Sequence record: MG488277 | Length of the DNA: 39,919 nucleotides | Reading direction: 5' to 3' (one strand) | DNA from: Escherichia phage EG1 | Shown here: positions 636 through 6,393 of the stretch, piece by piece | Layout: each line of letters begins with the position of its first letter | Position numbering within the stretch: position 1 is the stretch's first letter | Notes under the pieces: model-generated | Told to the model about the DNA's origin: nothing | Databases searched by the model: none | The model's input: the letters and a program-made list of their open reading frames with translations, nothing else | Position numbers and translations under genes: made by a program

Positions 636-706
636 GTCAACACGGTAGCACGGTGTCTTCTAGGTGACTTAAGCGCACCACGGCACACAAAGGTGAAACA
701 AAGCGG

Positions 707-742
707 TTGACAACATGCAGTAAACACGGTACGATGTACCGC
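707..742 (+). promoter_or_regulatory. A3: sigma70 early promoter A3
   Basis: TTGACA, 17-bp spacer, TACGAT; context ggttgacaacatg...gtaaacacggtacgatgtacc as in T7 A3. Confidence 0.85.
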
Positions 743-853
743 AAGCAGTAAGGGTGTAGGGATAGGAACCGAGAAACCTGCCCGTGACCCGCCAAGGATA
801 AGGCACTAGCCATGAGTCGAATTCGGTCACTCATCGCACAAAAGAATAATAGG

Positions 854-889
854 TTGACAGCCTCCTTTAAAAGCTGTAAGATGTACCCA
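854..889 (+). promoter_or_regulatory. Additional sigma70 consensus promoter upstream of ocr
   Basis: TTGACA, 17-bp spacer gcctcctttaaaagctg, TAAGAT. Confidence 0.6.
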
Positions 890-1002
890 CGAAATGACGG
901 AACAGTGAGTCACCACACTGAAAGGTGATGCGGTCTAACGAAACCTGACCAAAGACGCTCTTTAACAATCTGGTAAACGGCTCTTGAGTGTACACACGTA
1001 GC

Positions 1003-1050
1003 GGATAGCTCAAGGGTATCGAAAGGTGCCCTTTATGATATCCACTAACA
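1003..1050 (+). promoter_or_regulatory. R0.3: RNase III processing hairpin (R0.3-like)
   Basis: gatagctcaagggtatcgaaaggtgccctttatgat; paralogous to the downstream CTCAAGG...GGCCTTTATGAT hairpins. Confidence 0.6.
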
Positions 1051-1070
1051 ACACTATGAGGTAACACACA

Positions 1071-1433
1071 ATGGCTATGTCTAACATGACTTATAACAAC
1101 GTTTTCGATCACGCTTACGAAATGCTGAAAGAAAACATCCGTTATGATGACATCCGTGACGCTGATGGCCTGCATGATGCAGTGCATATGGCGGCTGATG
1201 CTGCTGTTCCGCACTATTACAGCGACATTTTCAGCGTAATGGCAAGCGAGGGCATTGACCTTGAGTTCGAAGACTCTGGTCTGATGCCGGACACCAAGGA
1301 CGTAATCCGTATCCTGCAAGCGCGTATCTATGAGCAATTAACGATTGACCTTTGGGAGGACGCTGAAGACTTGCTGAACGAGTATCTTGAGGAAGTCGAA
1401 GAGTCTGAAGAGTACGAAGAGGATGGAGAGTAA
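1071..1433 (+). CDS. ocr: Ocr, DNA-mimic anti-restriction protein (gene 0.3)
   Basis: 120 aa; [22 protein letters not shown]... with acidic C-terminus, recognisably T7 gp0.3; SD gagg upstream. Confidence 0.95.
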
Positions 1434-1588
1434 TGGCTAATAACACCACGCAATACGGTCTGACCGCTCAAACTGTACTGTTTTATAGTGACATGGTACG
1501 CTGTGGCTTTGATTGGTCGCTCGCAATGGAACACCTTAAGGAACTGTACGAAAACAACAAGGCAATAGCCTTGGAGTCTGCTGAGTGA
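1433..1588 (+). CDS. 0.4: gp0.4-like small protein (FtsZ inhibitor in T7)
   Basis: 51 aa [51 protein letters not shown]; start overlaps ocr stop (TAATG); below ORF-track cutoff. Confidence 0.85.
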   Translation: MANNTTQYGLTAQTVLFYSDMVRCGFDWSLAMEHLKELYENNKAIALESAE

Positions 1589-1590
1589 TA

Positions 1591-1640
1591 GGCTCAAGGT
1601 CGCTCAATATGAGTGGCCTTTATGATTATCACTTTAACCA
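1591..1640 (+). promoter_or_regulatory. RNase III processing hairpin, copy a
   Basis: ggctcaaggtcgctcaatatgagtggcctttatgattatcactttaac. Confidence 0.7.
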
Positions 1641-1656
1641 ATGAGGGAAGCACACA

Positions 1657-1941
1657 ATGCGCTTAAGTAAAGACACAGCGGTGGCACTACGCTCAGCAAT
1701 TGAATCCAAAGCTGCACACAACGTGGGAGGCCTTGCGGATATTGCACGGGCTTATGAGGAGAAAGGTCTAACATTCCGTCGATTTATGTGGGACTGTTAC
1801 CACGCAGTAGGCTTTCAAGAAACGACACGAATAATCTCTGAGCACAACACGGTGACGTTAATCGGTGGACACCTAACAGACGTGACTGATGCGCACATCG
1901 AAACAATACTCAAGGTTGCGCTTAAAGATTTGCAATACTAG
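1657..1941 (+). CDS. Hypothetical early protein, 94 aa, no T7 counterpart recognised
   Basis: ORF track; SD gaggga 8 nt upstream; sits between two RNase III hairpins in the class I region. Confidence 0.7.
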   Translation: MRLSKDTAVALRSAIESKAAHNVGGLADIARAYEEKGLTFRRFMWDCYHAVGFQETTRIISEHNTVTLIGGHLTDVTDAHIETILKVALKDLQY

Positions 1942-1995
1942 TGATAAACTCAAGGTCGCTCCTAGCGAGTGGCCTTTATGATTATCATTTAACAT
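1941..1995 (+). promoter_or_regulatory. RNase III processing hairpin, copy b
   Basis: gtgataaactcaaggtcgctcctagcgagtggcctttatgattatcatttaac. Confidence 0.7.
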
Positions 1996-2012
1996 GCAAT
2001 AGGACTAATATC

Positions 2013-2213
2013 ATGAGTAAACTTCTGGCAACATCTAAAATCAAAGGCCAACACACTGTAACTCTGCGTGAGTACGAGCACGGGAAAATGGGGAGCACTT
2101 ACGTTGTGCGGTACGGTAAACAAGTAACGCATTGGGTGAACGAGGTTTTGGCGCAAGAAGAATACCAAGCCTGCGTGATACACCAAGCAACCTGCGCTGG
2201 CTGGAATGACTGA
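2013..2213 (+). CDS. Hypothetical early protein, 66 aa (ATG-started version of ORF 1941..2213)
   Basis: ATG at 2013 with agga upstream; the longer track ORF starts at a GTG inside the hairpin, so the internal ATG is preferred. Confidence 0.6.
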   Translation: MSKLLATSKIKGQHTVTLREYEHGKMGSTYVVRYGKQVTHWVNEVLAQEEYQACVIHQATCAGWND

Positions 2214-2233
2214 TACCGCGATTTGTAATACTA

Positions 2234-2290
2234 GCGATAAACTCAAGGTCGCTCCATGCGAGTGGCCTTTATGATTATCACTTTACTTAC
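2234..2290 (+). promoter_or_regulatory. R0.5: RNase III processing hairpin, copy c (R0.5 position)
   Basis: gataaactcaaggtcgctccatgcgagtggcctttatgattatcactttac. Confidence 0.7.
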
Positions 2291-2303
2291 GGGAGTAATA
2301 TAT

Positions 2304-2432
2304 ATGCTTACTATCGGTCTGCTCACCGCTCTGGGTCTAGCTGTAGGCGCATCCTTTGGGAAGTCTTTGGGTGTAGCTGTAGGCTCTTACTTGGTCGCTT
2401 GTATCATCACGGGAGCACTGCGCAAATGCTGA
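2304..2432 (+). CDS. 0.5: Small hydrophobic protein, gene 0.5 position
   Basis: 42 aa MLTIGLLTALGLAVGASFGKSLGVAVGSYLVACIITGALRKC; SD gggag; single predicted TM-like segment; below ORF-track cutoff. Confidence 0.6.
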   Translation: MLTIGLLTALGLAVGASFGKSLGVAVGSYLVACIITGALRKC

Positions 2433-2563
2433 AATACTACGTTATGCCTATCCACACCAAGAACGGCGCTACAGTTTGCACACCTGATGGCTTCGCAATG
2501 AAACAACGAATCGAACGCCTTAAGCGTGAACTGCGCACCAATCGCAAGCTCAACAACATCTAA
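2426..2563 (+). CDS. 0.6: gp0.6-like protein
   Basis: MLKYYVMPIHTKNGATVCTPDGFAMKQRIERLKRELRTNRKLNNI resembles T7 gp0.6 N-terminal part; alternative start at 2444. Confidence 0.7.
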   Translation: MLKYYVMPIHTKNGATVCTPDGFAMKQRIERLKRELRTNRKLNNI

Positions 2564-2582
2564 TTACATTTGACACTGGAGA

Positions 2583-3671
2583 ATGCACAAAGTGAACGCT
2601 ATCGACATCATGAACGCTATCAACGCAATCAAAGCACTGCCAATCTGTGAACTTGATAAGCGTCAAAGTATGCTCATTGATTTGCTGGTCGAGATGGTCA
2701 ACAACGAAACGTGTGACGGTGAAATCACCAAGCTGGATAAGCCGCTTGAATATCAGGACTGGTGGACTACCTTAAGAGGTCTCACTACTGACGCTGGCTT
2801 CACGATGCTCGGTAATGGTCACTTCTCTGCTGCATATAGTCACCCACTGCTGCCTAACAGAGTGATTAAGGTGGGCTTTAAGAAAGAGGATTCAGGCGCT
2901 GCGTATATCGCATTCTGCCGCATGTATCAGGGCCGCGCTGGTATCCCTAACGTCTACGACGTTCAGCGTCATTCTGGCTGCTATACGGTGGTTCTTGATG
3001 CTCTGAATGAATGTGAGCGAGAGGATAACTATGAGCACGACAAATACGCTGAGATTGCAAGCGACATCATTGACTGCAACTCTGATATGCACGATTGGCG
3101 TGGCGGATGGGTTGGGGAGTTCGTCGAAACTTGCAAACTAATCCGCAAGTTCTTTGAGGGCATCGCTTCGTTTGACATGCACAGCGGTAACATCATGTTC
3201 GACGATAATGACGTACCGTACATTACCGACCCGGTGTCATTCTCACAGAAGAAAGACGGTGGCGCTTTCAGCATGGACCCTGAGGAACTCATCAAGGAAG
3301 TCGAGGAAGTCGCACGACAGAAAGAAATTGACCGCGCCAAGGAGCGTAAAGCACGCCATGTAGCACGCTTAGAGGTGCGCAGAATCAAACGCCGTAGACG
3401 CAAGGCACGTAAAGCACACATAGCTAAGCGTGAACGAATGGCGGCCCAGTGGCGCATGAACGAGCGTCGAGAACGTCGTAACCATGAGGTAGCTGTAGAT
3501 GTACTAGGAAGAACCAATAACGCTATGCTCTGGGCGCACATGTTCGCGGGGGACTTTAAGGCGCTTGAGGAACGAATCGCAGCGCACTGGTTCCAAGCTG
3601 ACCGCATGGCCATAGCTAATGGTCTTCAGCTCAACATTGATAAGAAACTGGACGCAATGCTAATGGGATGA
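2583..3671 (+). CDS. 0.7: Ser/Thr protein kinase and host-shutoff protein (gene 0.7)
   Basis: 362 aa; ...[21 protein letters not shown]...[32 protein letters not shown]... matches T7 gp0.7; exact start uncertain. Confidence 0.9.
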
Positions 3672-3741
3672 TAGTCTTATCTTACAGGTCATCTGCGGGT
3701 GGCCTGAAATAGATACGATTACTGACCGAAAGAGGTACAAA

Positions 3742-6393
3742 ATGAGCACGATTAACATCGCTAAGAACGATTTCTCTGACATCGAACTGGCTGCTATCCC
3801 GTTCAACACTCTGGCTGACCACTATGGTGAGCGTCTAGCTCGCGAGCAGTTGGCCCTTGAGCATGAGTCTTACGAGATGGGCGAGGCACGTTTCCGCAAG
3901 ATGTTTGAGCGTCAACTTAAGGCCGGTGAGGTTGCAGACAATGCGGCTGCTAAACCACTGATTACTACTCTGCTGCCTAAGATGGTTGCACGCATCAACG
4001 ACTGGTTTGAGGAAGTGAAGGCCAAGCGTGGCAAACGTCCAACCGCTTTCCAGTTTCTGCAAGGAATCAAGCCGGAATCTGTAGCATATATCACCATCAA
4101 GACTACTCTTGCTTGTCTGACGAGCGTGGACAATACAACCGTTCAGGCTGTAGCAAGCGCCATCGGACGGGCTATCGAGGAAGAGGCTCGCTTCGGTCGA
4201 ATCCGTGACCTAGAAGCTAAGCACTTCAAGAAAAACGTTGAGGAACAACTAAACAAGCGCGTAGGGCACGTCTATAAGAAGGCATTCATGCAGGTAGTCG
4301 AGGCCGATATGCTCTCTAAGGGTCTACTCGGTGGCGAGGCGTGGTCTTCGTGGCACAAGGAAGACTCCATTCACGTAGGGGTGCGCTGCATTGAGATGCT
4401 CATTGAGTCAACCGGAATGGTTAGCCTTCACCGCCAAAACGCTGGCGTAGTGGGACAAGACTCTGAGACTATCGAGCTGGCACACGAATACGCTGAGGCT
4501 ATCGCAACACGGGCTGGGGCACTGGCTGGTATCTCTCCGATGTATCAGCCTTGCATAGTACCGCCTAAACCTTGGACTGGTGTAACTGGTGGCGGATACT
4601 GGGCTAACGGTCGCCGTCCGCTGGTACTGGTACGCACCCACAGCAAGAAGGCACTGATGCGCTACGAAGATGTTTACATGCCTGAGGTATACAAGGCGAT
4701 CAACATTGCGCAAAACACCGCTTGGAAAATCAACAAGAAAGTCCTAGCGGTCGCCAACGTGATAACCAAGTGGAAGCACTGCCCGGTCGAGGACATCCCA
4801 GCGATTGAGCGCGAAGAACTCCCGATGAAACCGGAAGACATCGACACGAATCCAGAGGCGCTGACCGCTTGGAAACGTGCTGCTGCCGCTGTGTACCGTA
4901 AAGACAAGGCCCGTAAGTCTCGCCGCATAAGCCTTGAGTTCATGCTTGAGCAAGCCAACAAGTTTGCTAACCGTAAGGCCATCTGGTTCCCTTACAACAT
5001 GGACTGGCGCGGTCGTGTGTACGCTGTGTCAATGTTCAATCCGCAAGGTAACGACATGACAAAAGGTCTGCTGACACTGGCTAAGGGTAAGCCAATCGGC
5101 AAGGAAGGATTCTACTGGCTGAAAATTCACGGTGCTAACTGCGCGGGGGTCGATAAGGTTCCATTCCCTGAGCGCATCAAGTTTATTGAGGACAACCACG
5201 ATAACATCATGGCTTGTGCTAAGTCCCCACTGGAGCACACTTGGTGGGCTGAGCAAGATTCTCCGTTCTGTTTCCTCGCGTTCTGCTTTGAGTACGCTGG
5301 GGTACAGCACCACGGACTGAGCTACAACTGCTCGCTGCCACTGGCGTTCGATGGGTCTTGCTCTGGCATCCAGCACTTCTCCGCAATGCTCCGCGATGAA
5401 GTAGGCGGTCGTGCTGTTAACCTGCTGCCTAGCGAAACCGTTCAGGACATCTACGGGATTGTTGCTAAGAAAGTAAACGAGATTCTGCAAGCTGATGTAA
5501 TCAACGGGACCGATAACGAAGTAGTTACCGTGACCGATGAGAACACTGGGGAAATCTCTGAGAAAATCAAGCTGGGTACTAAAGCACTGGCTGGTCAATG
5601 GTTGGCCTACGGTGTGACCCGTAGCGTCACTAAGCGTTCAGTCATGACGCTGGCCTATGGCTCCAAAGAGTTCGGCTTCCGTCAACAAGTCCTTGAGGAC
5701 ACCATACAGCCAGCTATTGATTCAGGCAAAGGTCTGATGTTTACCCAACCTAATCAGGCCGCTGGGTATATGGCTAAGCTGATCTGGGAGTCAGTGAGCG
5801 TTACCGTAGTGGCTGCTGTAGAGGCTATGAACTGGCTTAAGTCTGCTGCGAAGCTGCTGGCTGCTGAGGTCAAAGACAAGAAGACTGGTGAGATTCTCCG
5901 TAAACGCTGTGCGGTGTATTGGGTAACTCCTGATGGCTTCCCTGTGTGGCAAGAATACAAGAAGCCAATTCAGACTCGCTTGAACTTGATGTTCCTCGGT
6001 CAGTTCCGCTTACAGCCGACCATCAACACCAACAAGGACAGCGAGATTGATGCTCATAAGCAGGAATCTGGTATAGCTCCTAACTTTGTACACAGCCAAG
6101 ACGGTAGCCACCTACGTAAGACTGTAGTGTGGGCGCACGAGAAGTACGGCATCGAATCTTTTGCACTGATTCATGACTCCTTCGGGACCATTCCGGCTGA
6201 TGCTGCCAACCTATTCAAGGCTGTTCGTGAGACTATGGTTGACACCTACGAGTCCTGCGATGTGCTTGCTGACTTCTACAACCAGTTCGCTGACCAGTTA
6301 CATGAGTCTCAATTGGATAAAATGCCAGCACTCCCAGCTAAAGGTAACTTGAATTTACGAGACATCTTAGAGTCAGACTTCGCGTTTGCGTAA
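3742..6393 (+). CDS. 1: Single-subunit DNA-dependent RNA polymerase (gene 1)
   Basis: 883 aa, near-identical to T7 RNAP as I recall it (same length, ...ILESDFAFA C-terminus). Confidence 0.98.
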   Translation: MSTINIAKNDFSDIELAAIPFNTLADHYGERLAREQLALEHESYEMGEARFRKMFERQLKAGEVADNAAAKPLITTLLPKMVARINDWFEEVKAKRGKRPTAFQFLQGIKPESVAYITIKTTLACLTSVDNTTVQAVASAIGRAIEEEARFGRIRDLEAKHFKKNVEEQLNKRVGHVYKKAFMQVVEADMLSKGLLGGEAWSSWHKEDSIHVGVRCIEMLIESTGMVSLHRQNAGVVGQDSETIELAHEYAEAIATRAGALAGISPMYQPCIVPPKPWTGVTGGGYWANGRRPLVLVRTHSKKALMRYEDVYMPEVYKAINIAQNTAWKINKKVLAVANVITKWKHCPVEDIPAIEREELPMKPEDIDTNPEALTAWKRAAAAVYRKDKARKSRRISLEFMLEQANKFANRKAIWFPYNMDWRGRVYAVSMFNPQGNDMTKGLLTLAKGKPIGKEGFYWLKIHGANCAGVDKVPFPERIKFIEDNHDNIMACAKSPLEHTWWAEQDSPFCFLAFCFEYAGVQHHGLSYNCSLPLAFDGSCSGIQHFSAMLRDEVGGRAVNLLPSETVQDIYGIVAKKVNEILQADVINGTDNEVVTVTDENTGEISEKIKLGTKALAGQWLAYGVTRSVTKRSVMTLAYGSKEFGFRQQVLEDTIQPAIDSGKGLMFTQPNQAAGYMAKLIWESVSVTVVAAVEAMNWLKSAAKLLAAEVKDKKTGEILRKRCAVYWVTPDGFPVWQEYKKPIQTRLNLMFLGQFRLQPTINTNKDSEIDAHKQESGIAPNFVHSQDGSHLRKTVVWAHEKYGIESFALIHDSFGTIPADAANLFKAVRETMVDTYESCDVLADFYNQFADQLHESQLDKMPALPAKGNLNLRDILESDFAFA

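Follow-up and report, generated by a model that had tools for sequence, protein, structure and literature searches.

orf94 of Escherichia phage EG1, a hairpin-bounded early accessory gene of T7-like phages and a candidate for host interference or anti-defence

To our knowledge, almost every characterised pre-early gene of T7-like phages disarms or rewires the host, as with Ocr, SAM lyase, gp0.4, gp0.6 and gp0.7. Escherichia phage EG1 carries a further gene in this region, here called orf94, for which no counterpart was found in T7, and the question is what its product does. The window analysed (39,919 nt; record MG488277) is a complete T7-like phage genome. Over positions 1000-4000 its closest record in the phage collection searched is that of Yersinia phage vB_YenP_WW2 (94.7% DNA identity). 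An earlier note on this DNA had described orf94 as a novel early protein without a T7 counterpart and, by its position, as a possible anti-defence or host-takeover factor. The features of the early region are listed in Table 1.

Table 1. Features of the early region of the EG1 genome (positions in the window)
Feature	Position	Strand	Remarks
Sigma-70 promoter matches, four strong	471-499, 599-628, 707-735, 854-882	+	10 of 12 consensus positions each
ocr	1071-1433		PF08684 match at 9.2e-62
Gene 0.4 homologue	1433-1588		
Upstream R0.5-type hairpin	1585-1632	+	-22.4 kcal/mol, z = -5.24; repeat family D1
Shine-Dalgarno sequence GAGGG	1643-1647	+	9 nt before the orf94 ATG
orf94	1657-1941	+	94-aa protein, predicted soluble and all-alpha; EG1 gp03; member of PHROG 9817
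Downstream R0.5-type hairpin	1941-1988	+	Fold z = -4.2; repeat family D1
orf66 (66-aa accessory cassette gene)	2013-2213	+	PHROG 6500, a family without assigned function; absent from T7
Third R0.5-type hairpin copy	2233-2282	+	z = -3.5; precedes the true 0.5 homologue
Gene 0.5 homologue	2304-2432		82% identity to T7 gp0.5
Gene 0.6A homologue	2426-2563		Matches T7 gp0.6A
Gene 0.7 homologue	2583-3671		
Gene 1	3742-6393		

The reading frame is as clean as had been claimed and has a good ribosome-binding site. It opens with the ATG at 1657, the first start codon past an in-frame stop and without an alternative upstream, and closes with the TAG at 1939-1941. Its leader, GGAAGCACACAATG, is similar to that of ocr, GGTAACACACAATG (repeat D10). 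Since antisense ORFs of 156-194 aa occur nearby, ORF length alone is no evidence of coding. Pairwise dN/dS against six homologues is 0.10-0.18, and the differences from these homologues fall 628 times at the third codon position, 228 times at the first and 126 times at the second. On the basis of dN/dS and this third-position bias, orf94 is a true protein-coding gene, and it is under strong purifying selection. Its homologues also share a near-invariant N-terminal start, M-R/K-L.

The sequence has already been catalogued. The product is 100% identical to ATW57711.1 / YP_009795799.1, the hypothetical protein gp03 of Escherichia phage EG1, and residues 1-94 match positions 1-93 of the 94-position profile of PHROG 9817 (E = 4.9e-40), a family that carries no functional assignment and has neither a Pfam model nor a solved structure. 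The word 'novel' must therefore be dropped: the analysis improves the context of an already annotated hypothetical protein rather than making a discovery, and orf94 is a member of the known early accessory class of the T7 group.

The promoter arrangement upstream of orf94 resembles that of T7 with one addition. The four sigma-70 matches are, judging by alignment, the counterparts of T7 A1, A2 and A3 together with a duplicated A3-like promoter. The A3 promoter region of T7 (712-750) aligns both to 705-743 and to 852-890 of the window, so that there are seemingly four strong early promoters as compared with three in T7; about 108 nt between the two A3-like copies (window 705-890) do not align to T7. 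Between 403 and 6402 there is neither a plus-strand terminator nor a phage promoter, phage promoter sites being confined to 381 (phiOL) and to 6402 and beyond. Thus orf94 lies between the A promoters and gene 1 and shares their strand, and its earlier assignment to the takeover region that host RNA polymerase would transcribe is upheld by position. A (GA)n run directly follows the phiOL promoter, and short tandem repeats occur near the left end at 160-330 (CCTAAAGTATCCTC-type) and 395-415 (CATCCTAACGAC, three copies), as is typical of the ends of T7-like genomes.

The immediate surroundings of the gene differ from those that had been described. orf94 had been placed between gene 0.4 and the 0.5 homologue, and its right-hand neighbour, the 66-aa ORF, has no similarity to T7 gp0.5, which is small and hydrophobic. 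This ORF was considered as a candidate for gene 0.5 and rejected: it belongs to PHROG 6500, and T7 gp0.5 (MYMLTIGLLTALGLAVGASFGK..., MYMLTIGLLTALGLAVG...) matches the window further downstream. With the true 0.5 homologue located there, two extra cassettes lie between 0.4 and 0.5 relative to T7. The 66-aa product gives a weak match (E = 0.12) to a PHROG annotated 'Kil septation inhibitor'. Its gene often accompanies orf94 (WW2, phiYe-F10, AP10, IMGVR_3300045988 and, distantly, KL01).

Both cassettes are bounded by hairpins of one type. The first, which lies between 0.4 and orf94 and would separate their mRNAs, consists of a lower stem (GTGATAG/TTATCAC), an internal loop and an upper stem of 10-11 bp. 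The core of the second (1949-1982) is identical at 34 of 34 positions to T7 1438-1471, which we take to be the RNase III site mapped as R0.5 by Dunn and Studier. The second hairpin includes in its base the orf94 stop codon (TAGTGATAA, three consecutive stops), an overlap that is kept in ECA2, 2050H2 and yong1. In an alignment of 21 copies from 11 phages, 98.6% of the cells are paired and compensatory changes occur in 8 of the 17 pairs, a degree of covariation matched by none of 500 shuffles and not approached by slid registers. Rfam holds no family for these hairpins. In sequence and in secondary structure (lower stem, internal loop and upper stem) they are thus equivalent to R0.5, and the bracketing of orf94 by putative RNase III sites, as proposed earlier, is well founded. 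The window departs from T7 in number: T7 has one such site, whereas here three tandem copies are found, each closing a gene cassette and each putatively cleaved.

Two of the hairpins also belong to a longer repeat. The segment 1927-1993 recurs at 2220-2286 (67 nt, 91% identical), and within it GATTTGTAATACTAG at 2220-2234, past the stop of the 66-aa ORF and before the third hairpin, is identical at 14 of 15 positions to the last 15 nt of orf94 (1927-1941). This short repeat looks like a scar of recombination or gene conversion at the hairpin. At the same point, CICC 80001 has ~30 extra nt.

Comparison of related genomes suggests that the cassettes move independently. Both are absent from T7 and pO111; CICC 80001 and Yep_9 carry orf66 alone, ECA2 carries orf94 alone, and the pair is found in the window, WW2, phiYe-F10 and AP10. 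All four combinations therefore occur, as recombination between hairpin repeats of 50-67 nt would produce. Judged by its absence from T7, pO111, CICC 80001 and Yep_9, orf94 is a conserved accessory gene that appears to be dispensable.

The position of orf94 varies within narrow limits. It follows ocr and 0.4 in the window, WW2, ECA2, phiYe-F10 and AP10, directly follows the SAM lyase gene in 2050H2, directly precedes it in Oda, PGT2 and the T7-like MAG contig JAWEYN, and directly precedes ocr in yong1, Peacock and IMGVR_3300045988. It never leaves the pre-early region, and Ocr or SAM lyase is never more than two genes away. It lies immediately upstream of one of them in Przondovirus, Kayfunavirus, Ermolevavirus and one Teseptimavirus-like contig, and in the first two of these genera no sizeable gene enters the cell ahead of it. 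This adjacency is weak evidence of a shared function because the early region holds only 5-8 genes. A metagenomic protein of 104 aa, P0036, fits the adjacency to SAM lyase. In this natural chimera, residues 1-66 come from the orf94 family and residues 69-103 correspond to the SAM lyase C-terminus (PF23780 at 8.5e-4; PHROG 2226); it presumably arose in a Przondovirus-like phage by a deletion that fused two adjacent genes. The SAM lyase Pfam match was rejected as a trait of the family, being confined to the C-terminus of this chimera.

The family is phage-borne and more widespread than its T7-like members. orf94 was found in ~60 of 50,697 phage records, all labelled hypothetical (tblastn gave 61 at E <= 0.01 and 63 at E <= 10, ~60 of the latter being full-length family members), and PHROG 9817 is carried by ~60 Autographiviridae genomes. 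Homologues of EG1 gp03 include those of ECA2, 2050H2, phiYe-F10, AP10, Oda, yong1, Peacock and PGT2. They fall into an upper tier of 73-99% identity, in Teseptimavirus- and Teetrevirus-like phages, and a lower tier of ~46-52%, in Przondovirus, Kayfunavirus, Ermolevavirus and KL01. Plasmids gave no match, and among 185,579 species genomes the only five loci were on MAG contigs 9-51 kb long; orf94 is restricted to phage or phage-like contigs.

Several records carry odd annotations. The phiYe-F10 genome (KT008108.1) encodes at 1578-1859 an intact homologue, 82% identical, that is unannotated in both GenBank and RefSeq, and one T7-like genome, whose orf94 is 94.7% identical, has been deposited under the name 'Enterococcus phage EFA-2'. 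In vB_EcoM_SHAK7854 the homologue is labelled 'similar to N4-like RNA polymerase', and that of yong1 carries a 'CNP C-terminal domain' note; our searches support none of these three labels. The oddly labelled records are MT350293.1, OR594182.1 and MK610268.1.

Beyond the T7-like phages, a profile search of 1.84 billion representative proteins matched 13 clusters, and iterated searches recovered stand-alone proteins of 74-107 aa with 22-35% identity on phage-sized metagenomic contigs. These divergent relatives match PHROG 9817 alone among PHROGs. They sit within arrays of small uncharacterised genes on unrelated phage contigs, where no conserved partner gene was found beside them. Apart from one N-terminally truncated fragment of 146 aa, members stand alone at 74-107 aa and no domain fusions were seen. 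Three large proteins matched by the profile (P0038, P0041 and P0044) were discarded as low-complexity or repeat artefacts. One distant member, P0063 (Logan SRR17165187 contig, 1-2291), lies ~2.7 kb from a phage NAD-salvage set, a divergently oriented group of genes for NAPRTase, an isochorismatase/nicotinamidase and a CTP_transf_like nucleotidyltransferase.

Conservation is concentrated in a few motifs, which in the EG1 protein are GLTFRRFMWDC (residues 37-47), IGGH (69-72) and DAHIETILKVALKD (78-91). Across family identities of 22-99%, W45, D78, T83 and L85 are invariant and R42, D46, H80 and I81 nearly so. The signature of the wider family (74-107 aa) reads RxxWD … DSHI[E/D]TAL, with [K/N/D]DSHI[E/D]TAL[K/R] as the C-terminal motif of the divergent branch. 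A conserved Cys/His metal site was considered and rejected, as conservation of C47 and H49 does not extend beyond the T7-like group.

The product is probably a small, neutral and soluble five-helix protein. It has a pI of 6.5, a net charge of -1.1 and a maximum 19-residue hydropathy of 0.57, in agreement with the earlier statement that it has no long hydrophobic segment; it is thus not a membrane protein, unlike gp0.5. A first AlphaFold run, on an alignment of just 27 close homologues, was not relied on because only one of its five models was confident. In a second run, with 47 sequences including distant members, four of the five models reached pLDDT 93-94 and pTM 0.82. These models have predicted helices at residues 5-19, 25-35, 40-51, 53-63 and 78-88 and a small β-hairpin at 68-73, and an independent BFVD model of the yong1 homologue superposes on them at a TM score of 0.91.

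Neither the sequence nor this predicted fold leads to a known function. Scans of Pfam, NCBIfam and PADLOC with the orf94 protein and ~25 divergent relatives gave no consistent match, bearing out the earlier view that it has no obvious domain, and no catalytic-domain or helix-turn-helix match was found. Sequence searches of the PDB with the single sequence and two profiles returned noise only (E >= 0.07), and fold searches of the PDB, among them a Foldseek search from the first AlphaFold run, came back empty. The profile and structure-prediction searches proposed in the earlier note thus yield no homologue of known function and no structural analogue, and the predicted fold of the family with the RxxWD … [K/N/D]DSHI[E/D]TAL[K/R] signature appears to have no solved counterpart. 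In the literature we found no publication on the protein or its family, and the family's peptide motifs are absent from the supplements of papers on accessory-gene screens. One entry, JSS1_004, is the gp0.7 kinase and hence irrelevant to orf94. A helix-turn-helix regulator was rejected for want of such a match and because of the neutral pI, and an Ocr-like DNA mimic because the protein, in contrast to Ocr, has no PF08684 match and is not acidic.

Compared with the T7 class I proteins (Ocr/gp0.3, gp0.4, gp0.5, gp0.6 and gp0.7), orf94 would share their transcription unit, timing, small size, dispensability and putatively RNase III-processed mRNA architecture, whereas no resemblance of its product to them was found in sequence or fold. 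It likewise resembles the small anti-defence proteins of phages (~60-130 aa) in size, predicted solubility, accessory distribution and probable early expression, and its gene, like theirs, clusters with counter-defence genes (Ocr and SAM lyase). However, it shows no homology, by sequence or by fold, to any characterised anti-defence or defence-associated family in the PDB, Pfam or the annotated PHROGs. Judged from the sequence, the genomic context somewhat strengthens the earlier proposal of an anti-defence or host-takeover factor, and nothing that was found contradicts it.

We propose that orf94 is an accessory gene of class I (pre-early) that the phage can do without and that moves between T7-like genomes, and that it acts as follows. 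The gene forms a cassette flanked by R0.5-type hairpins, and host RNA polymerase would read it as part of the segment behind the A promoters. In T7, hairpins of this type are cut by RNase III; cutting here would release a mainly monocistronic orf94 mRNA whose 3' stem-loop would shield it against exonucleases. Recombination between the hairpin repeats would move, add or delete cassettes. The product would be made in the first minutes of infection and most likely works as a non-catalytic binder that neutralises a host protein. As its gene travels with Ocr or SAM lyase, often ahead of them on the entering DNA, the likeliest target is a defence component, perhaps part of a DNA-targeting or other early-acting defence system common in Enterobacterales. 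We therefore tentatively favour a stoichiometric inhibitor of a host defence component (probability roughly 0.4), on account of this persistent association and the frequent position ahead of the two genes. Several points tell against a role in defence. Selection on orf94 is purifying, whereas interfaces shaped by an arms race often diversify; the conserved residues R42, W45, D46, D78, H80, E82 and T83 are polar or aromatic and could mark a ligand or catalytic site; and other T7 early proteins, gp0.4 and gp0.6, target host physiology rather than defence.

The last of these points leads to the strongest alternative, in which the product binds a housekeeping factor, for example of cell division, the cytoskeleton, transcription or proteolysis, and raises phage yield in some conditions. 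Such targets are familiar in T7, where gp0.4 acts on FtsZ, gp0.6 on MreB, and gp2 and gp5.7 on RNA polymerase. orf94 shares its genomic compartment, size class and accessory status with gp0.4 and gp0.6, and a conserved housekeeping target would fit both the strong purifying selection and the 73-99% identity retained across phages of Escherichia, Yersinia, Serratia, Klebsiella, Citrobacter and Pantoea. However, the protein has no similarity to gp0.4, gp0.6, gp2 or gp5.7, and the repeated placement of its gene directly before Ocr or SAM lyase, first to enter, better fits immediate protection. We regard this alternative as possible, if somewhat unlikely; were orf94 a dispensable modulator of host physiology, the result would be an ordinary one.

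It is distinctly improbable that the product is directed at the phage itself or at other phages, for example as a helper or regulator of early functions, in genome entry, or in the exclusion of competing phages or mobile elements. The occurrence of distant members in long arrays of small genes without a conserved partner is compatible with this, as it is with many roles, whereas the patchy presence of orf94 among near-identical T7-like genomes argues against a part in the core programme, and the protein has a charge near neutral and no detected DNA-binding domain. Less probable again is a small-molecule binder or mini-enzyme, for example a sponge for an immune signalling nucleotide or a metal-dependent hydrolase using R42/W45/D46 and D78/H80/E82/T83. 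Known sponges are similarly small phage proteins, and apart from L85 the invariant residues are polar or aromatic (W45, D78 and T83), with R42, D46, H80 and I81 nearly invariant. The conserved residues could alternatively be a helix-capping and core motif, and S-x-x-E, also conserved, perhaps does no more than cap a helix. That orf94 is spurious, a non-coding spacer or leader between RNase III sites, is refuted for practical purposes: ORFs of equal length do arise by chance here, as the antisense frames show, but the codon-level selection, the ribosome-binding site, full-length homologues with conserved motifs down to ~22% identity and the confident, independently reproduced structure prediction all speak against it.

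A broader form of the defence-inhibitor reading extends to the whole family. orf94 might be the T7-group representative of an unrecognised, phage-wide family of small helical proteins forming a new class of counter-defence, deployed before Ocr or SAM lyase in several genera against defences that act on the first-entering DNA. We offer this as a speculative proposal that is rather more likely to fail than to hold.

For T7-like phages, the hairpin-bounded cassettes illustrate how early accessory genes may be shuffled at RNase III sites. Because it is conserved, horizontally exchanged and found with Ocr or SAM lyase in at least five genera, and because its confidently predicted fold has no solved analogue, orf94 is a well-defined candidate for a new host-interference or anti-defence activity.
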